A stretch of DNA of 64,000 nt from Candidatus Omnitrophota bacterium (lineage in GTDB: Bacteria > Omnitrophota > Gorgyraeia > JAHIPI01): NCBI GenBank assembly GCA_016783745.1, contig JADHVZ010000007.1:259-64258 (forward strand). Direction: 5' to 3'. Made by a program: the position numbers and the translations under genes. How positions within the stretch are numbered: position 1 is the first letter of the stretch; each line of letters opens with the position of its first letter. Shown here piece by piece: positions 3,320-60,074 of this stretch. The notes beneath the pieces were generated by a model that made no database searches, was not told the DNA's origin, and saw only the letters and a program-made list of their open reading frames with translations.

Positions 3320-4700
3320 TTTTTCTGTTATAACAGGACTTTGTTAATTTTTCAGTTTTTTCTTAAACCGTTCTGATTTGATTTTATATAGCGAAGCAGC
3401 GATGTCCTTGTTCTTTGAAAGTAAAAACGCGGAATCAATGATAATGAGCGCCGAAACAGCCTGTTTGCATTGGCCGATTGTTTGAGGCGTTTCTTCCAGA
3501 ACCTTAGAGAGGTAACCGTTCTGCTTAATCAAGTAAGCAAGCGTCCATGTCAGGAATGACATAATCCAGTGTCTTTGGATTTGCTCCTGATGGCGAACCT
3601 GATATTGATCAAAACAGAAGGTATCTTTTAGCTCTCTAAAGGATTCTTCAATGCCCCAACGCAAGAGGTAAGTCATTATAACTGATCTGACAGACATTTT
3701 AAGATCGGTGGTTATGAGCACATGAACGGATTTATCGTCACTATCCGACCATTTGTTAAAGACAAAGATGACTTTAACAGGTGTTTTACAACCTTTGAGC
3801 TTGGAGTTAAAAGAATAAGTGAAAACGCTTTTGTCTTCACCTGTATTTTGAGGTATGCGGACAGCCTTTAATTTATGGGGATAAAATTGTCTAATCAAAG
3901 GTATGATTTCGTCGCAGCAGAGATATCTCCACTGCCTGGTCTGGGGATGGGTAAAGAAGACCGAACGGTTAATCTTAACTTCAGCCACCAAGGATATGTT
4001 CTTGGAGGAGACAAATTCTATTAAGTCTGTAGAGGTGTACCAGCTGTCAACGACTACAGAAGAGAAGGTAATATCTTTCTTTATGGCCTCATCGATAAGT
4101 TCTTTGGCAAGATCGAGTTTGCTTTTAAATTGTTTCGCTTCACAGGTATCAAGGGGCAGGTAAGGTGCTGAGCTTACAGGAAAGTGCTTGGTGTCTGAGA
4201 CGAAACAGCTGGCAACAGCAACATTACAATTTTCCTCTCTGCCTAAAGGAGCGCAGTATTGGAATTTGGCCCCTTCTGTATTTTTGGCATAAGGTTTTGG
4301 ACAGGCTGTATCGTCTATAGCGAGGACACCTTTGCTGCTGGATTTACTAGTTCTTTGCTTCTCTATGAGTTTTAAACGAATATCGTTTAGTTCATCGCAA
4401 TTCCAATTGGACTCCGAGAAGAAATATTGTAATTTTTGATAGGTGAGAGAGGTATTATTCGCGATAGCAGCCAGTGACATCCTTTTGTAATCTGCGAACA
4501 GCGCATAGATAAGCTCTCTGAATACCGACAATTGTGTCTTTGAAAAAACATGGTTGAAATGCACACTCTTCGCGCAATCGTCCGTTTTCACGCTTTAACG
4601 CTGCTATATCATCGTTCTTTCGACCACTTCCAGGGAATACAGTTTCGCCTTGCTCTTTGACCATATTTCTCCAAGTATGTAGGTCGTTTTCTTCGTAATT
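3320..4700 (-). mobile_element. IS701-family insertion sequence (boundaries approximate; terminal IRs not identified)
   Basis: Contains a single DDE transposase ORF. It sits directly next to the tRNA-Arg/palindrome locus. Confidence 0.4.
3344..4591 (-). CDS. IS701-family DDE transposase
   Basis: Motif LAIDDTACPKP...QYCAPLGREENCNVAV matches the IS701 signature (DDTgfpKkG...QYCGtlGKvaNCQVAV). The C-terminal WGIEESFRELK is the conserved E/K region of the IS4 superfamily. Confidence 0.8.
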   Translation of the reverse strand: MKTDDCAKSVHFNHVFSKTQLSVFRELIYALFADYKRMSLAAIANNTSLTYQKLQYFFSESNWNCDELNDIRLKLIEKQRTSKSSSKGVLAIDDTACPKPYAKNTEGAKFQYCAPLGREENCNVAVASCFVSDTKHFPVSSAPYLPLDTCEAKQFKSKLDLAKELIDEAIKKDITFSSVVVDSWYTSTDLIEFVSSKNISLVAEVKINRSVFFTHPQTRQWRYLCCDEIIPLIRQFYPHKLKAVRIPQNTGEDKSVFTYSFNSKLKGCKTPVKVIFVFNKWSDSDDKSVHVLITTDLKMSVRSVIMTYLLRWGIEESFRELKDTFCFDQYQVRHQEQIQRHWIMSFLTWTLAYLIKQNGYLSKVLEETPQTIGQCKQAVSALIIIDSAFLLSKNKDIAASLYKIKSERFKKKLKN

Positions 4701-4702
4701 AG

Positions 4703-4759
4703 TAATTAGGGACGGAGCCTAATTAGGGACGGAGCCTAATTAGGCTCCGTCCCTAATTA
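4703..4759. repeat. Perfect 40-bp palindrome TAATTAGGGACGGAGCCTAATTAGGCTCCGTCCCTAATTA plus one extra 17-bp left-arm copy (REP-like)
   Basis: Read directly from the sequence. The same palindrome recurs at 24150-24188. Here it lies immediately 3-prime of the tRNA-Arg on the minus strand, a terminator position. Confidence 0.9.
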
Positions 4760-4763
4760 AAAG

Positions 4764-4840
4764 TGGCGCGCCCGGGCCGATTCGAACGGCCAACCTGCTG
4801 ATTCGTAGTCAGTCACTCTATCCAATTGAGCTACGGGCGC
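4764..4840 (-). tRNA. tRNA-Arg (anticodon ACG)
   Basis: Reverse complement folds as a 77-nt cloverleaf: acceptor GCGCCCG/CGGGCGC, D-arm GCTC-AATTGGATA-GAGT, anticodon loop CTACGAA (U33, ACG, A37), T-arm GGCCG-TTCGAAT-CGGCC, discriminator G and an encoded CCA. There is one A·C mismatch at position 27-43. Confidence 0.85.
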
Positions 4841-5048
4841 AGATTATTCACTACGCTCGCCCTAGTGCCCCGAGGGGTACGGGCGCAGATTATTCACTAC
4901 GCTCGCCCTAGTGCCCCGAGGGGTACGGGCGCAGATTATTCACTACGCTCGCCCTAGTGCCCCGAGGGGTACGGGCGCTTTTTCTTCTCTGAAACTCCCA
5001 GTGCCCCGAGGGGTACGGGCGCAGATTATTCACTACGCTCGCCCTAGT
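4841..5048. repeat. Tandem array of a 46-bp unit AGATTATTCACTACGCTCGCCCTAGTGCCCCGAGGGGTACGGGCGC (3 perfect copies, 1 degenerate, 1 partial)
   Basis: Copies at 4841-4886, 4887-4932 and 4933-4978, a variant at 4979-5022 and a partial at 5023-5048. Each unit ends in TACGGGCGC, the reverse complement of the tRNA 5-prime nonamer GCGCCCGTA. Confidence 0.9.
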
Positions 5049-5360
5049 CTCTCCGAAGCTGAACGCGTAAGCAATTCAGCGAAGGAGGACGGGCGCGGAT
5101 TTGAATTCTTCCGGTATCAGGCCGCTTAATGAGCCGTGCGGCCTGAATGTATTATATTCCTTTCTCCAGTCTTCAATTGAGGTTTACTACATATTTTTTT
5201 AAGGATTGCTCATGATATTAGTGTTAATAATTATACCTGCTAATTATCAATTAATCAAGTTTAATGAAGTCGCTGATTTCTATTGAACAAAAAGTCCTTA
5301 AGTGGTAAAGTATTTATACTCATAAAATGTAAAAATCCACAAACAAGAAAGGAGTTTGTT

Positions 5361-24149: not shown

Positions 24150-24188
24150 ATAATTAGGGACGGAGCCTAATTAGGCTCCGTCCCTAAT
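24150..24188. repeat. Second copy of the 40-bp palindrome TAATTAGGGACGGAGCCTAATTAGGCTCCGTCCCTAATT (REP-like)
   Basis: Identical to 4720-4759 except for the last base. Located just 3-prime of the 1676-aa gene (minus strand) in a terminator position. Confidence 0.9.
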
Positions 24189-24190
24189 TC

Positions 24191-39804: not shown

Positions 39805-39834
39805 TAGTATAGTGAACAATCGTTCACTTGTCAA
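39805..39834 (-). promoter_or_regulatory. lexA promoter with SOS (Cheo-type) box GTGAACGATTGTTCAC filling the -35/-10 spacer
   Basis: Minus-strand reading: TTGACA-AGTGAACGATTGTTCAC-TATACT-atatacc-ATG. The box is a perfect GAAC-N4-GTTC palindrome and the leader is only about 7 nt. Confidence 0.6.
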
Positions 39835-39836
39835 TA

Positions 39837-39955
39837 GAAAAAGGGGACAGACACTTTTATAGCGTTGTAAAGGGGACAGACACTTTTTTGAGGCTACATA
39901 CAGAGCTTCAAAAAAGTGTCTGTCCCCATAATCGTAAAAGTGTCTGTCCCCTTTT
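39837..39955 (-). terminator. Nested inverted repeats: four copies of GGGGACAGACACTTTT (two direct, two inverted) forming a long hairpin terminator
   Basis: Outer copies at 39841-39856 and 39936-39951 and inner copies at 39873-39888 and 39909-39924, with A/T runs on both sides. The element sits between the membrane-protein gene and the lexA promoter. Confidence 0.5.
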
Positions 39956-39959
39956 TCTA

Positions 39960-41771
39960 TTATTTTCTCTTAAAGAGGGCGATGCCGTACTGTTCCGTGG
40001 TAAAGGGGAAGGGGCCGAACTGCTTGTGCAGCCTGTAGTTTTTCACTATATATTTGAATATATCCTGCGCGTAGTCTTTGCCGAAAACGGCGTACCCGTA
40101 TTTATCCGTTCTTCTTTGCGTCAGGACTATATAGTCCACTTTCTTCTCATCCATCTCCCGGATGACATCGTCGGCAACACCCTGCTTGGCCAGGTCTATC
40201 GGATGATAACTGTAATAATAAAGCGGGTTCTCCCTGTCCAATAGGAAATTGACCACCACCCCTTCGGGAAAAACCACTAATGTTTCGTCTTTGCCTGTAG
40301 AGGTTTCCAAATATTTCATCAACTCCGCCAGCCTCTGCTCCCTGCTTGTGCCGAAGACGTTCATGCTGCCCCTGCCGGAAGTAACCCTTAACGTACGGTT
40401 CTTATAGCAAAAGTTCGAGATCTTACAATGACTCGCTATAAACAGGATGAATATAAACAAAAGACCGGCCCTGAAATATCCTCTGGCCAGATCCGACTTT
40501 AAGGGCGCGGCCGCGATCTTGAGGAAGAATACATAGTAAACGATTATGGCGGGCGTCAGGATATAGAAACCATAATGGCCCGCCCAGACATGCAAGAGCA
40601 TCCTTGTCATCAGGAAAAATGAGAAAAATGATATCGTCAGCATAAAGATGTTTTCAGTCCTGTTCTTTTGCCTGAGGGCGCCTATCGCGGAAATGATCAT
40701 CACCGCCAGGCATATCACGGGTAGCGACCTGTACTGCAGATCATAGGAAACGAAAAACACTCTGTAAAGAAAAAACGCCGCCGCAATAACGGCTAAGCCG
40801 ATGGCGGAGGATAGCGCTATCCTCGAGGCGGTTTTTTTCCGGCATAAAAGGCTTATGATGACCCCGCCCGCGGCGAAAAGCAGGCATAACGCCGAATAAT
40901 GCAGGATATTCTTAAGTATGATCAATATGTTCCCGGGCATATCATCCAGGCCGGAAAGCCAGCCCGCGAAGGCGGTCCTGACATCGGAACTTTTTACCCA
41001 TATATCGAACAGGTTGCTATTCTGCACCGCGCTGCTTCCCAGAAATGCGGCATAGACAAAAAAAGCGATGATCAACGGTATTATAACGCAAAGCGCCAGC
41101 CTGTTGCCCGATAGCCGCGCCGGATCACCGCCGCGGCGGAACGATATCGTATAAAAAATAACGCCCGCAAGCATGGACAGGACAAGCATTATCCCCACAT
41201 CCACCCTTGACAGGAGCGTAAGCAGGATGAACGACGAACTTAAATAGGCGTATTTGCTCGATCTTTTTTTCATCAGGATGTAGAAGAAATAAAGCGCCGC
41301 AAGAGAGAAAGCTATGGCATGGATCGATGAATAACTATAAGGCAGGAAGAAATTATAGTTACCCAGATACGTATAATGGCCGAACCCGAATACGATCAAA
41401 AAAGTAAAGACCGTGAATGTGGAAAATAATATACTGAGAAAGCGCCGCGATATCTTGTATATCAGCACGCTGACCGCGCAAAGGGTAATAAACCCGCTTA
41501 AGTAAAGGATATAAAGGTTTGCGCTGAAGATCTTAAATAGAGTCGCGTTAAAATACGGCGAAAAAGGCCCGTATATGTAAAAAACGTCCCTGTATAATAG
41601 CTTTCCGAGGCCGAGCTGCAATGGCACATACATCTCTCGGCCCACATCTACTATCAGATCACCCCACTTCAGCCATGTGAACTTCAGTAAAAAAAGCAGG
41701 CATACCGAGCTCAATAAAACAGAGATCCAGCCACTTTTCCAGTATTTTTTTAAAAGCAGTTTATATCTCAT
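39960..41771 (-). CDS. Large polytopic integral membrane protein, possibly a lipid-linked glycosyltransferase or polymerase
   Basis: 603 aa with at least 14 TM helices and a C-terminal soluble domain of about 150 aa. No confident family motif. Confidence 0.35.
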   Translation of the reverse strand: MRYKLLLKKYWKSGWISVLLSSVCLLFLLKFTWLKWGDLIVDVGREMYVPLQLGLGKLLYRDVFYIYGPFSPYFNATLFKIFSANLYILYLSGFITLCAVSVLIYKISRRFLSILFSTFTVFTFLIVFGFGHYTYLGNYNFFLPYSYSSIHAIAFSLAALYFFYILMKKRSSKYAYLSSSFILLTLLSRVDVGIMLVLSMLAGVIFYTISFRRGGDPARLSGNRLALCVIIPLIIAFFVYAAFLGSSAVQNSNLFDIWVKSSDVRTAFAGWLSGLDDMPGNILIILKNILHYSALCLLFAAGGVIISLLCRKKTASRIALSSAIGLAVIAAAFFLYRVFFVSYDLQYRSLPVICLAVMIISAIGALRQKNRTENIFMLTISFFSFFLMTRMLLHVWAGHYGFYILTPAIIVYYVFFLKIAAAPLKSDLARGYFRAGLLFIFILFIASHCKISNFCYKNRTLRVTSGRGSMNVFGTSREQRLAELMKYLETSTGKDETLVVFPEGVVVNFLLDRENPLYYYSYHPIDLAKQGVADDVIREMDEKKVDYIVLTQRRTDKYGYAVFGKDYAQDIFKYIVKNYRLHKQFGPFPFTTEQYGIALFKRK

Positions 41772-49456: not shown

Positions 49457-50203
49457 TTAGTACCGCCTGCCTATACCTACTACAACTGATGTACCTGCCG
49501 ATGCAAATGTCTCTCCTGTTACCGGATCCGCTATAGTAAGGTCTATCGAATAAGAGCCCGGTTCTGTATAAGCGTGAGAAACACTGCTGCTTCCGCTGCT
49601 TGAGCTGCCGTCGCCAAAATTCCAGTAGTATTCTCCGGGGCCGTCATATGATGCTGAAAGTAGTACTCCAAGAAAGCTCCTTCCTCCCACCATGACTGAG
49701 ATCTCCGGATCATCGTAGTTTTTCTGGCCGTATCCGCTCTCACCGTAACCGCTCTGGCCGTATCCGCTCTCGCCATAGCCGCCCTGACCAGGGCCTACTG
49801 GTTCATAAACTCTGATCTCTACAGATGCAGTGTCGCTTCCATCAGGCCCTATTATTTCAAGCGTCGCGGTGTAATCTCCGGGTTCATCATACGTATAGGA
49901 TGCGCTTGTGCCTTGTCCATCCCTGAAAACACCGTTTCCGTCCAGGTCCCACGCGCGGATAATTATATTGCCTGTTGAATGGTCTGAGAACGAGACTGAA
50001 AGAGGCGCGTATCCGTCAGCCGGAAAAGCGGAGATGGCGGCGCCAAAGGCCTCAAGCACAGTGATCGCTTGTGATGCGGTGTCGCTTCCGTCAGGACCTA
50101 TTATTTCAAGCGTTACAGTGTACTCACCGGCTGCCTCATAACTGCAGCTCGCGTCCTGGCCATGACTCGGCCGTCCGCCGTTTCCAAAATACCATGAGCT
50201 CAT
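49457..50203 (-). pseudogene. N-terminally truncated PKD-domain surface-protein gene fragment
   Basis: The ORF begins inside a PKD domain (SSWYFGNGG...), has no signal peptide, holds three PKD-like repeats plus GESGYGQSGYG spacers, and abuts the TIR element. Confidence 0.5.
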
Positions 50204-50230
50204 GCGGAGGCTCTTCGATTCGGCTTCTTC

Positions 50231-50383
50231 GTGTCTGGCGAATTTTGCCCTACAGAAATTTGCTTTTAGTAATTAACACCTTGTAAGCAAATTTCTATTA
50301 GGACTAGTCCCATAAAAATTGCCTGTGCATTTCTGAATGTCGAGGCAATTTTTGTGGGGGTGGGGGCAAAATTCGCCAGACAC
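50231..50383. repeat. MITE-like 153-bp element with perfect 20-bp terminal inverted repeats GTGTCTGGCGAATTTTGCCC and three internal palindromes
   Basis: Left TIR at 50231-50250 and right TIR at 50364-50383 (exact reverse complement). Internal inverted repeats AGAAATTTGCTT/AAGCAAATTTCT, GGACTAGTCC and AAAAATTGCCT/AGGCAATTTTT. Confidence 0.8.
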
Positions 50384-50830
50384 TTTGCGTCCTCTTCCTC
50401 GCAAAAATCCTTTATTTTTTAGGCGGCCAATTTATCCCGAGCAGAGTCGAGGGAAAAATTTTTAAAAGGTGTTTGATTTTTGCTCGGTCAAGTCCGCCCC
50501 CGAAGGTAGAACTTCATAGAAGTTTCTCCATGCGGGGGAAGCCTCATCTCATGGACGCGTTGCGCTGCAGCGGAGCACCTGCAGTCACAGTACCTAAAGG
50601 TAGGCTTCGCGCTACATAAATGTAGCGCTCCGCACTCGGGCGGCTTCAGCCCGGAGTTTATCCGCCGTAGCCTTGGCGAAGGCGGAGGCTTCCGTAGCGC
50701 CCTTTGTGCGCCTGCTTTTCTCAAGAGGAATGCGATTGACAAAAGAGTATTTTTATGATATATATGAAATCGACAAAAAGATATAGCCGTCCCGTGTTTA
50801 AAGGGGGAACCCGGACGTTAAAAAAGTAAA

Positions 50831-50864
50831 ACCTTCGCAGGATAAGAATTGCGAAGGTTTTTTA
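50831..50864 (+). terminator. Rho-independent terminator just upstream of radC
   Basis: ACCTTCGCA-ggataagaat-TGCGAAGGT followed by TTTTTT on the plus strand. Confidence 0.55.
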
Positions 50865-50880
50865 ATTGTATAGGAGAATT

Positions 50881-56074: not shown

Positions 56075-58555
56075 ATGCCAAAGCCAAAATTCAACGAAGA
56101 CACATTGTCAGAACAACCTCTCATAAAACAGCTCCATGAGCGGATGGGCTATGAATATATTCATGGAGACAATCTTGACCCTGATTTGCATGATGAATGT
56201 GAGCGCAAGTCACGTAGAGAAGTTATTCTGGTTGAGCGGTTGAAAAAGAAGCTCAAAGAGATTAACGATAATTTAACAGATGAATCAGTCGACAAGGCAA
56301 TACGCAAGATTACTCATATCCAGGCGGAGACCGCGCTTGAGGCAAATAAGATATTCCACAGCCGTTTGATTTCCGGGGTTTCAGTTGAGCAGGATGTGGG
56401 CGCGAGGCGGCAGAATGTAACAGTAAATTTTATAGACTTTAAGGATATTGGTAAAAATGAGTTTTTGGCTGTCAATCAATTTTGGGTAAGGGGCCCTAAA
56501 GAAACCTGCAGGCCGGATGTAGTTATTTTTATAAACGGTGTGCCCATAGTTGTCATTGAGTGTAAAAGCCCCGTAGCTAAAGACACAGGTGTTATTGACG
56601 CACAGCGCCAGTTAAGGCGCTATCAAAGAGATATTCCAGACCTATTCAGGACAAATGAAATTCTCATAGGCTGTAATCTTTTTGGCGCAAAATACGGGAC
56701 CATAGAAGCCCCTGAAGACAAATACCACGAATGGAAGGAGCAGGGTAAAGAGAAATTACCAAATATGGCCGAGCACCCTTCGGTGAAAGAGATGCTCAGA
56801 TTAGGACTGATTGACAAAAAAGACATAGGCAAACATCCTCCGATGCAGGAAATCCTCGCAGCGGCGGTACTCAATAAGAAAAATTTGTGCGATATAGTGC
56901 GGAATTTTATTGTTTTTGATTATGACAAAGAAAGCCATAAAGTAATTAAAAAGATTTGCCGTTATCAGCAGTTTACAGCTGTTAACAAAATTGTAAGGCG
57001 TGTTGTAGAAGAACCTGATAAGAAAGGAATTATTTGGCATTGGCAGGGTTCCGGCAAGTCGCTTATTATGGTCTTTGCCGCCATTAAATTAAGGCGGGAA
57101 GAAGAAAAGCTTAAGAACCCAATTATTCTGATTGTTACAGATAGGACTAAGCTGGATAGGCAAATAACAGAAAACTTCCAGAATTGTAATTTTCCAAATC
57201 CCCAGCGAGCCAAAAACATGAAGGAGTTGTACGCCTTACTTAAAAGTGGCACAGGCAACACTATTATGACTACTGTTCAGAAATTCAGGGCTGTTTTGGA
57301 TAAACCGTTATCACAAGAAGAGAATATTATTGTTATGACTGATGAAGCTCACAGGACTCAATACGGCGCCTTTGCCCTTAACTTACGAAAGGCATTGCCG
57401 AATGCGGGCTTTTTCGCGTTTACCGGCACGCCGCTCAATAAGCGGGACAGGAATACATACCGCCATTTCAGCCCGTCGCATGAACGTTATTTAGATAGAT
57501 ATGATATGCGCCAATCTAAGGAAGATGGGGCAACGGTCGATGTCAAGTACGAAGGCCGTATGGCTAATCTGCAGGTTGTTTGCGCCTCAATTGATAAACT
57601 TTTAAAAGAACTGTTTCCCGAAAAGACAAGCAGAGAAATTGCCGAGATTAAAAGGCGGTATGCCCGCATTGACACGATTTTAGAAGCGCCTCGTAGAATA
57701 GAACGGGTCGCTATGGATATCGTAACTCACTATAATGCTAAAATTGCGCCTAACGGTTTTAAGGCAATGATTGTTACTAACAGCCGGAAAGCTGCGGACA
57801 AATATAAGAAAACGCTTGATAAGCTAATAGATCCCTCCTGGTCAACGATTGTTATGACAGTAGATAATGATAGCCCGCAAGAATGGAAAGATAACTATAA
57901 GAGGACGCCCACAGAAGAAGAACACCTTACAGGCAAGGAAGTGTTTCAGAATCCGTCAAACCCTTTAAAATTTCTTATAGTCTGCGATAAACTATTGACG
58001 GGTTTTGACGCGCCTATTATGCAGGTTATATATCTTGACCAAAGGATGAAAGAACATGGACTTTTGCAGGCAATTGCAAGGACAAACAGGCCATACCCCA
58101 GAAAGAATTTCGGCTTAGTTGTAGATTATGCCGGGGTCGGGAAAGAATTAACACAGGCTCTGGCGATATTTGACAGAGAGGATCTTGACGGGCTTTTTAG
58201 CGTCGATGATATAAAGAAAGAATTAGCATCTATGAACGATGCCCACAGAAAGATAATGTGTATATTTAAGAAAATCAAACGCGAAAACAAGCCTAGTGAA
58301 GTAATTCAGCAGCGGGAGACTAAAAAGCTAATAATAAATCTGCTTTTTAAAAACATCAAAATCTCCCCCAAACGTCTTTTTTCTTTTAATTTCTTCGCCC
58401 CCTTCAATTTTTTCTTTTTTGAGGAAAAACAAAAATGTCAAGTCGTGAATTTACAAAGGGTTATGAAAAATCGCCCCCGAAGGTCTTTATCCGGACTTTC
58501 GGATAGGGGATGGGTGAGTAAATTTGGGTTATTTCTTCCAGGATATCGGGGATAG
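56075..58555 (+). CDS. hsdR: Type I restriction enzyme R subunit, apparently 3-prime truncated
   Basis: HsdR_N nuclease-like N-terminus, helicase motif I (WHWQGSGKS), motif II (TDEAH) and motif VI (QAIARTNR). Only about 110 plausible residues follow motif VI, whereas about 300 are typical. The ORF tail (FFAPFNFFFF...) is non-protein-like and overlaps the convergent trkH. Confidence 0.75.
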   Translation: MPKPKFNEDTLSEQPLIKQLHERMGYEYIHGDNLDPDLHDECERKSRREVILVERLKKKLKEINDNLTDESVDKAIRKITHIQAETALEANKIFHSRLISGVSVEQDVGARRQNVTVNFIDFKDIGKNEFLAVNQFWVRGPKETCRPDVVIFINGVPIVVIECKSPVAKDTGVIDAQRQLRRYQRDIPDLFRTNEILIGCNLFGAKYGTIEAPEDKYHEWKEQGKEKLPNMAEHPSVKEMLRLGLIDKKDIGKHPPMQEILAAAVLNKKNLCDIVRNFIVFDYDKESHKVIKKICRYQQFTAVNKIVRRVVEEPDKKGIIWHWQGSGKSLIMVFAAIKLRREEEKLKNPIILIVTDRTKLDRQITENFQNCNFPNPQRAKNMKELYALLKSGTGNTIMTTVQKFRAVLDKPLSQEENIIVMTDEAHRTQYGAFALNLRKALPNAGFFAFTGTPLNKRDRNTYRHFSPSHERYLDRYDMRQSKEDGATVDVKYEGRMANLQVVCASIDKLLKELFPEKTSREIAEIKRRYARIDTILEAPRRIERVAMDIVTHYNAKIAPNGFKAMIVTNSRKAADKYKKTLDKLIDPSWSTIVMTVDNDSPQEWKDNYKRTPTEEEHLTGKEVFQNPSNPLKFLIVCDKLLTGFDAPIMQVIYLDQRMKEHGLLQAIARTNRPYPRKNFGLVVDYAGVGKELTQALAIFDREDLDGLFSVDDIKKELASMNDAHRKIMCIFKKIKRENKPSEVIQQRETKKLIINLLFKNIKISPKRLFSFNFFAPFNFFFFEEKQKCQVVNLQRVMKNRPRRSLSGLSDRGWVSKFGLFLPGYRG

Positions 58556-60074
58556 GGCTATGAGGACTGTGTAGATCTCTAGTCGGCCCAGCAACATGCA
58601 GAAGACCAGGACCCACTTTCCGCCGATCGGGATCCAGGCGTAATTCTCTGTCGCGCCGATACCTGATAGGCCCGGGCCTATGTTACACATGGTCGCCGCG
58701 ACAGTAGTAAAAGAGGTGGTAAAATCTCCTATAAAAAAGCTCATGATCAGCGAACAAACAGTAAATAGCGCCAGGAAAAGCACGACAAAACCTACGATGC
58801 TGGCTACCTGCCTGTCTTCTATCGTTTTCTTCGCTATCTTGACCGGCGCTATGATCCTGGGCTGAATAATCGTCCTTATCTCCCTGAAAGCGCTTTTAAT
58901 AGTGACCATGACCCTTACCATCTTTATACCGCCGCCGGTCGAGCCGGCACATCCTCCGAAAAACATAAGGACGACCAGCATATAACGGATAAAATTAGGC
59001 CATATATCAAAATCCGCAGTGCAGTATCCCGTAGTAGTAGTGATCGACACTACCTGGAATGCCGCGTGGCGCAGCCTGCCGCCAAAAGAGTCTATTTTTG
59101 TTCCTTCAATATTTATTTTTTCAGTAATAGCCTCTTCGGTCAAGGGCCGGCTGCGATAGCTTCTGCTTATCTGTTCCCGAGAATTAATGCCGCTTGATTG
59201 AAGGACAAATGTACTCAGTAAAACCGCTATTAAGATAACAGCCAGGTAGAAATGGAGTTCTTTATTGCTTCTGAGGAGGGTGAATTTTCTTCCGAATAAG
59301 ATCCTGTAGTGAATGACAAAATTCATGCCGGCGAAAAACATAAATATAATGATCACCCACTCTATAAAGGCGCTGTTATAGGCCCCTATAGACGCGTTCT
59401 TTGTGGAAAATCCGCCGGTAGCCATGGTGCCGAATGAATGACATATCGCGTCAAAAAACGTCATTCCGCCTATTTTGAGAAGGGCTGTTTCGATCAAAGT
59501 CAGCACAACATAAGTCCCCCCACAGGATCTTCGCGGTCTGCGCAAGCCGGGGTTTAAGCCGTTCAGCGGCAGGCCCCGGGACTTCACCCCGAAACATCTG
59601 GTATCCGGCGATGCCAAAAACCGGTAATATAGCAAGGGCAAGGGTTATAATACCCATCCCGCCCAGCCAGTGCGTTAAGCTCCGCCAGAAAAGTATACCC
59701 TGCGGCAATCCCTCGATCTCGGTCATGATGGTGGCGCCGGTAGTGGTAAAACCGCTCATGATCTCGAAGTAGGCGTCAGTAAAGGCGTGTGTAAAAACAC
59801 TCAATGTGAGGCCTCCGGCCTGAGAAAGAAAATAGGCCGTAAGAGGTATGCAACCGAAAAGCGTTAACAAAAACCAGCCAAATGTCACTATGGCAAACCC
59901 TTCTCTTATGCCGGTTCCCGTCAACTCGTTTTTTCCGAAGAGTTTAAGGATGTTTCCGAATATAAATGAAGCTGCTATAGCGATAATAAAACCGAAAAGC
60001 CTGTGATCAAAAATAACTGCGGGAAAATTTCTTGAGGGGATCTCGAAGAACGCTATTAATGCCGGCACGATCAA
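58529..60074 (-). pseudogene. trkH: TrkH/KtrB-family K+ uptake protein, split by a frameshift
   Basis: ORF 59451..60074 encodes the N-terminal half up to ...[12 protein letters not shown] 58529..59641 resumes in another frame at [33 protein letters not shown]. The roughly 190-nt overlap contains the frameshift. Confidence 0.7.

Follow-up and report, generated by a model that had tools for sequence, protein, structure and literature searches.

A solitary MITE-like palindrome at a rearrangement junction in an Omnitrophota genome

For the analysis of a palindromic element in the MAG of an Omnitrophota bacterium, a stretch of 64,000 nucleotides was examined, which is called the window in the following. 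The element has a length of 153 bp and is non-coding. Its neighbours are the remnant of a PKD-repeat gene on the left side and radC together with type I R-M genes on the right side. The features of the locus are listed here in the order of their position.

49457-50203, minus strand: 5'-truncated remnant of a multi-PKD surface-protein gene, 248 codons, with PKD repeats in the ORF
50231-50383, no strand: the whole nested palindromic element, 153 bp, consisting of two mirror-image halves of about 76 bp
50231-50250, plus strand: left terminal inverted repeat GTGTCTGGCGAATTTTGCCC, which includes the motif GAATTTTGC
50254-50296, no strand: hairpin 1 with a perfect 12-bp stem (AGAAATTTGCTT/AAGCAAATTTCT) and a 19-nt loop
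50301-50310, no strand: central 10-bp palindrome GGACTAGTCC, 1.5 nt off the geometric centre of the element
50309-50358, no strand: hairpin 2 with a 16-bp stem (CCCATAAAAATTGCCT/AGGCAATTTTTGTGGG) including one G-T, and an 18-nt loop
50364-50383, minus strand: right terminal inverted repeat, complementary to the left arm at every position
50384-50795, no strand: non-coding, hairpin-rich structured DNA between the element and the radC cassette
50796 to about 58311-58320, plus strand: cassette of radC leader, radC, hsdM, DUF6036 nucleotidyltransferase gene, gene for a 350-aa protein, hsdS and hsdR

The terminal repeats are complementary at 20 of 20 positions, as described in the initial annotation, and are unique in the window. 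When the terminal 20-mer was searched with up to 3 mismatches, 2 matches were obtained in the 64 kb, which are the two arms themselves (0.01 expected from shuffled sequences), and no second copy of the element was found in the window. The palindrome formed by the terminal repeats is real and lies far beyond chance. If the true ends of the element are TGT...ACA, it extends from 50232 to 50382. The last 7 nt of the right arm form, together with TTT, the 10-mer CAGACACTTT (50377-50386). The initial annotation had also listed three internal palindromes, all of which are present. The 12-bp repeat was located in the stem arms of hairpin 1 (50254-50265 and 50285-50296) and the 10-bp palindrome at 50301-50310, but the third one, described as an 11-bp repeat, is the core of hairpin 2. 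The stem of this hairpin comprises 50309-50324 and 50343-50358, its loop contains a small inner stem, and it can be read as a longer imperfect inverted repeat (50309-50331/50336-50358, 23 nt at 83%).

The element shows a two-fold symmetry, in which each half consists of a 20-nt end, a short spacer and a hairpin with a loop of 18-19 nt. Outside of the 20-nt ends, the two halves are about 45% identical. Hairpin 2 is a mirror copy of hairpin 1, with the same pair at 8 of 12 stem positions, compensatory differences at 3 and a mismatch at 1; a similarity as high as that between the hairpin arms is reached by 0.4% of the 12-mers of the window. Since the stems differ by three double changes, the shape of the hairpins has been kept despite the divergence of their sequence. 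A GAWWTTTGC-like motif is present in all six arms of the element, and two extra motifs of this type are located just outside of it, at 50401-50409 (minus strand) and 50475-50483 (plus strand). The interior is rich in A+T (36% G+C). For the whole element, folding energies of -82 kcal/mol (plus-strand RNA), -73.2 kcal/mol (minus-strand RNA) and -50.3 kcal/mol (DNA) were predicted. The z-scores are between -11 and -13, with -12 for the plus-strand RNA, and none of the shuffled sequences folded equally well. Stop-free frames of more than 103 codons were not found in the element or overlapping it, and a chimeric query of 505 aa, joined from all stop-free frames of 50204-50880 in six frames, gave no protein homologues.

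The PKD gene remnant on the left side aligns collinearly (44% identity, GYGQ linker included) with residues 706-932 of a multi-PKD protein in the relative L018. This protein has at least 952 aa, and its gene occupies the syntenic position upstream of a peptidase-MA gene. In the window, the PKD homology stops at about 50212, corresponding to position 33 of the 85 positions of the Pfam PKD_4 profile. As the ORF starts in the middle of a domain and the gene of the relative encodes at least 952 aa, it represents a gene remnant truncated at its 5' end, with the break no more than 19 nt away from the element's left end. The element had been described as sitting exactly at the truncation point of the PKD gene. 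The truncation beside it is real, and its distance from the element is more accurately given as up to 19 nt. Between the end of the PKD homology and the element there are 18 nt which can be assigned to neither of them. At least 2 kb of the 5' part of the PKD gene is missing at the junction. A 1954-aa C25/PKD gene located beyond the window was considered as the missing part and was rejected, because it shows only weak similarity at the domain level. An excision of the element that restores the PKD frame was rejected as well, because the upstream frame is not PKD-like and carries a stop at 50432. The peptidase gene neighbouring the remnant is 100% identical to ISS26_02585 of a "Candidatus Omnitrophica bacterium" MAG.

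On the right side, the element is followed by the non-coding segment 50384-50795, with a G+C content of 50% overall and 59% at 50490-50720, compared to 45% for the window. For 50384-50795, neither an Rfam match (E ≤ 10) nor a protein homologue was found. Its G+C-rich part of about 230 nt (50490-50720) is rich in hairpins and may represent a relic or a structured RNA of an undescribed type. The cassette behind it is partly of low G+C content (0.37-0.42) and shows 75-77% DNA identity to cassettes in unrelated contigs (L020, L021 and L025-L027). Its hsdR gene has 826 codons in the window compared to 1018-1021 aa in the homologous cassettes, so that about 200 codons are lacking. The hsdR frame (56075-58555) continues from about 58320 into a junk tail, which overlaps the 3' end of trkH (58529-60074). 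The trkH gene appears as two overlapping ORFs in every assembly and is a frameshifted pseudogene or contains a recoding site. The truncated hsdR indicates that deletions did happen at this locus. The DNA right of the element is not collinear with the relatives. The non-coding segment and the acquired, truncated cassette together make up about 8 kb of imported DNA in partial decay, and the element lies on its left border.

Two tyrosine recombinase genes are located directly upstream of radC in the homologous contigs L025 and L026. L025 (3561-5778; ENA ERZ24794679 NODE_2728) belongs to a co-occurring organism and carries a cassette of 75% identity with the two recombinase genes in tandem. This arrangement suggests that, in certain hosts, recombinases mobilise or rearrange the radC-type I R-M cassettes of this family. 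Remnants of the two integrases of L025 were not detected in the window by tblastn. The leader of radC (50738-50880; L020 7920-8000; L025 5830-6000) is conserved and contains a promoter-like TTGACA-17-TATATA. A short stem around the conserved AAGGGGGAACC is formed by GTCC/GGAC or by AGTGG/CCACT, changing on both sides between the homologues, and a terminator-like hairpin (50828-50861) is found right before the start codon of radC. Judged from these elements, the leader looks like an attenuator or a small cis-regulatory RNA; no Rfam family matched it.

The reading of the element as a MITE implies a family of copies, and the search for such copies was extended beyond the window. In additional flanks of about 10 kb on the left and about 9 kb on the right side (about 19 kb, in total about 83 kb of the genome), no second copy was found. 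In three samples, Logan contigs assembled with k=31 enter the element from the PKD side, cross it completely without a branch and end at 50409. An identical second copy would have broken these contigs about 30 nt into the element, and the unbroken passage therefore means that no other copy sharing 31-mers is present in these three metagenomes. For copies elsewhere in the MAG, the detection limit of the copy-number tests is roughly 90% identity. The expected multiplicity was thus not found, as the element is single-copy in about 83 kb and at the 31-mer level in three metagenomes. A blastn comparison of the element and its flanks with loci of relatives (L017 and L018), cassette homologues (L019-L021 and L025-L027) and extended flanks (L022-L024) gave no match except for the conserved radC leader.

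The exact terminal 20-mer is absent from the GTDB species representatives, the JGI metagenome contigs and IMG/VR, barring one chance match. The matches in GTDB and JGI both belong to the same coding sequence of Thauera with 64% G+C, in which the partner arm is missing; judged by reading the sequence, it is presumably an acyl-CoA synthetase gene. In IMG/VR, no match was obtained for the terminal 20-mer, for two 24-25-mers of 50384-50795 or for one oligomer of 58472-58496. The comparison of 50204-50880 with plasmids and phages (blastn, distant mode) gave no match. Assemblies from at least eight samples, in ENA and Logan, contain the region of the element, and its sequence and orientation are identical in 8 of 8 assemblies. 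These assemblies represent one near-clonal population, so that their identity is uninformative with respect to constraint.

Several known types of palindromic elements were compared with the locus. Correia elements of Neisseria have a length of about 104-156 bp and terminal repeats of 26 bp; like other MITEs, they are multi-copy and have a defined target duplication, which is TA in their case. The element resembles them in its size of about 150 bp, the terminal inverted repeats, the non-coding interior, the strong fold and the location between genes or at a gene junction. It differs in being single-copy in all data examined and in having no clean duplication, and its ends (GTGTCTGG...) are unrelated. 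REP doublets, REPINs and ERIC sequences likewise consist of two inverted hairpin-forming units that make up one long intergenic stem-loop, but these families comprise tens to hundreds of copies and REPINs are associated with a RAYT transposase. Membership in the REP/REPIN group was rejected because of the single copy and because no gene of this Y1 transposase was found in a Pfam scan of 41.8-64 kb of the window.

Homology to an attC site or a terminator had been named in the initial annotation as an argument against a MITE or a small RNA, and membership in both classes is excluded by the following observations. Integron attC sites are imperfect palindromes of 57-141 bp with a variable central structure, which work as a folded single strand, and are similar to the element in this respect. 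However, the element has the ends GTGTCTGG ... CCAGACAC without RYYYAAC/GTTRRRY core sites, and its outer stem consists of 20 uninterrupted pairs without extrahelical bases. An integron integrase or a cassette array is also missing, and an attC site was therefore rejected. An intrinsic terminator was rejected because no T-run follows the stem, the flanks being CACTTTGCG on the plus and CACGAAGAA on the minus strand; the terminator scan reported none at the element. No sigma-70-type site was found within 50231-50383. A sigma-54 promoter reading of TGGCGAATTTTGC was rejected, since the spacing from GG to GC is 10 rather than 12.

Taken as a whole, the reading of the element as a MITE or a structured small RNA is partly supported, as the shape is right but the properties of a family are missing. 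The architecture of a MITE is present with terminal repeats, small size, a non-coding and A+T-rich interior and a strong fold, whereas multiple copies and a clean duplication of the target site were not found. Among the outcomes that the initial annotation had listed as refuting, a single copy and missing target-site duplications are largely what was observed. A perfect target-site duplication of 3-12 bp does not occur at the flanks. The best candidate is CTTCG/CTTTG with 4 of 5 identical positions, and it is obtained only with TGT...ACA as the ends. Such a match has a chance probability of about 1.6% for one chosen length and offset, and a higher one when several are tried. The right flank does not consist of PKD sequence, so that the target-site duplication may have been lost in a later rearrangement.

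We tentatively read the element, with a probability of about 35%, as a solitary relic of a MITE-like transposon, or as a transposon terminus, which marks a rearrangement junction. It would be non-autonomous, or would be the remaining end of a larger mobile unit, with terminal repeats of 19-20 bp and with subterminal hairpins of the GAWWTTTGC-type motif as putative sites for a transposase supplied in trans. It could have been inserted into the large PKD-repeat gene, or could have arrived as the left edge of imported DNA. A later rearrangement, either an adjacent deletion or the loss of the other end, would then have removed the 5' part of the PKD gene and the matching target-site duplication. 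In its present state, the element would form the junction at which the PKD 5' part is gone and an unrelated G+C-rich segment begins, followed by the radC-type I R-M cassette. The anatomy of the element, the truncation of the adjacent gene, the foreign and decayed DNA on the right side and the lack of other copies in the data examined were observed directly; from these we infer the origin from a transposase and the second rearrangement.

A relic followed by a further rearrangement accounts for the position at the junction, the missing duplication and the single copy, and this history is the most economical reading, held at the tentative level given above. It leaves the perfect ends unexplained. 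For a perfect repeat in an old orphan relic, special pleading is needed, namely a recent arrival with the imported DNA or a selection on the structure. The sole IS in reach, with a DDE_5/DDE_Tnp_1 transposase gene at 3344-4591 beside a tRNA-Arg and a palindrome cluster, has termini that are unrelated to the ends of the element. The relic is favoured by the presence of at least one IS in this genome and by other intergenic elements flanked by inverted repeats, which exist in this genome and in a relative.

Two further palindromes were identified in the window. A nested palindrome of 129 nt (39833-39961) has perfect outer inverted repeats of 27 nt, inner ones of 24 nt and four copies of AAAGGGGACAGACACTTTT. 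It is located between the stop of the gene 39960-41771 and the start of a LexA-like (Peptidase_S24) gene. The syntenic spot in the relative L017 (19358-19714), with about 69% protein identity, carries an element of 357 nt with 48-nt inverted repeats and the related motif GGGACGTGCCACTTT. The palindrome beside the LexA-like gene may be a conserved operator array for an SOS-type repressor. Of the five exact occurrences of the 10-mer CAGACACTTT in the window, four fall into this palindrome (39848-39946), and the fifth extends across the right end of the element of 153 bp. By chance, about 0.1 additional copies would be expected. A perfect 39-nt palindrome (TAATTAGGGACGGAGCCTAATTAGGCTCCGTCCCTAATT), unrelated to the 153-bp element, is found at 4703-4759 and at 24151-24189, 19 kb apart. 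One copy directly follows the 3' end of the tRNA-Arg, the other one the stop of a 1676-aa gene, and the two represent a small REP-like or terminator family. Five tandem repeats of 46 nt (4832-5080) start inside the 5' end of the tRNA-Arg (4764-4840, minus strand). The contig ERZ24794672 NODE_91 is about 240 nt shorter at these repeats, which points to a variable copy number or to an assembly collapse. ARAGORN reported only this tRNA-Arg and no tmRNA.

Unlikely is a cis-acting structure of the host, in which a cluster of inverted half-sites of the GAWWTTTGC type, or a cruciform, in a long divergent intergenic region would act as an operator, insulator or RNA-processing site for the flanking operons. 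The motif in all six arms and its two copies just outside argue for this, as do the compensatory differences by which the hairpins keep their shape and the other long perfect palindromes at gene boundaries (4703-4759, 24151-24189 and 39833-39961). Outside of the element, the 10-mer CAGACACTTT is found only in the palindrome before the LexA-like gene, which contains it four times, but the chance expectation for the extra copy at the element, about 0.1, weakens this link. The identity of the element in eight assemblies would also fit, but it comes from the near-clonal population and is no evidence of constraint. With a truncated remnant on one side and imported DNA on the other side, the place is not an old conserved regulatory region. 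Similar sequence was not found in the readable relatives, and a sigma-70-type promoter or an intrinsic terminator was not detected in or at the element.

Quite unlikely is a second alternative, in which the palindrome is the boundary of a mobile segment starting at about 50380, serving a trans-acting recombinase as a hairpin target or as a structure recognised at the terminus. It arises from the assembly graph. Logan contigs (k=31) end or start at 50409, 50810/50812, 58359 and 58668, and SPAdes contigs (k=55) end at 50428, 58384 and 58643. Both kinds of contigs stop at 3 of 4 junctions, and at 2 of these 3 the contigs with k=55 extend 25 nt further than those with k=31, as expected for a unique flank that runs into a segment with another context. 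From these k-dependent ends we infer that the source metagenomes contain 50380 (or 50374)-50839 and 58330-58697 in a second context as well. The start of the first shared segment falls 4-10 nt within the element's right arm and may represent a recombination boundary at the hairpin or microhomology. The two segments 50380-50839 and 58330-58697 do not match each other, and each of them is present once in the window. The related radC-R-M cassettes beside two tyrosine recombinase genes in a co-occurring organism agree with a mobile segment. However, the second context was never seen directly, a recombinase gene or remnant was not found near the locus in the window, direct repeats at the two ends are limited to one 13-mer expected by chance, and the estimates of the left edge from k=31 and k=55 lie 6 nt apart. 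In its most specific form, the palindrome would be the recognition hairpin for a recombinase that acts in trans and moves the DNA from about 50380, which would amount to a hairpin-guided placing of defence cargo (radC-type I R-M) in Omnitrophota. This would explain the branch of the graph 4-10 nt inside the right arm and the cassettes travelling with tyrosine recombinases, and we regard it as very unlikely.

For the remaining explanations, a small RNA, a by-product of the breakpoint and an inverton, there is little support, and the rest of the probability falls to none of the readings discussed here. A structured small RNA or a 5' leader, transcribed from the plus strand, would fit the very stable predicted fold (-82 kcal/mol, z = -12). 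The two transition-type imperfections of hairpin 2 are G-U on the plus strand and A-C on the minus strand, and the plus strand is more stable by 9 kcal/mol, but with G-U on one strand in 2 of 2 cases (p = 0.25) the bias is not significant. None of the Rfam 15 families matched the element in the window at the gathering thresholds, and none reached its threshold in a relaxed search (E ≤ 10, three sub-regions) either. The latter returned eukaryotic miRNA hairpin models with at most 18.5 bits, compared to gathering thresholds of 40-105, which represent noise. A promoter-like site or a terminator was not detected, and homologues for a covariation test are lacking. The long perfect stems and the nearly equal folding of both strands are the signature of a symmetry at the DNA level rather than of a selected RNA. 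The small-RNA part of the initial annotation has thus gained no positive support, and this explanation is a poor candidate.

A by-product of the rearrangement, that is an inverted duplication from the repair of the break which truncated the PKD gene, would fit the location at a compound breakpoint and the overall two-fold symmetry about the central palindrome. However, the halves are only about 45% identical past their 20-nt ends. Had the duplication arisen recently by snap-back, it would be near-perfect over its whole length, and an old one would have lost the match of 20 of 20 positions at the ends. Neither half is similar to the flanking PKD or G+C-rich DNA, and this origin has a very low probability. 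Least credible of all is an inverton, in which the interior of 113 bp would switch its orientation between the 20-bp repeats and thereby control a flanking operon: size and repeat length are like those of known switches such as the flagellar (flgB) switch of Clostridioides difficile (154 bp, 21-bp repeats), and the position between a surface-protein operon and an R-M operon is typical for switch targets, but 8 of 8 assemblies show one orientation at the assembly level, no internal sigma-70-type promoter and no nearby recombinase gene were found, and the adjoining surface-protein gene is a remnant.

The element is best filed as an orphan MITE-like palindrome at a rearrangement junction in an Omnitrophota MAG. 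In the present data, no signal of conservation, copy number or expression lifts it above this status. To our knowledge, almost nothing has been described about the mobile elements and the cis-regulatory DNA of this uncultured phylum. If the element is a transposon relic, it marks the loss of most of a giant surface-protein gene from a reduced Omnitrophota genome and the acquisition of an R-M cassette, which would help the annotation of the MAG but would be ordinary. It would carry greater weight if it was a recognition structure for the insertion of the island, or a conserved regulatory cruciform.
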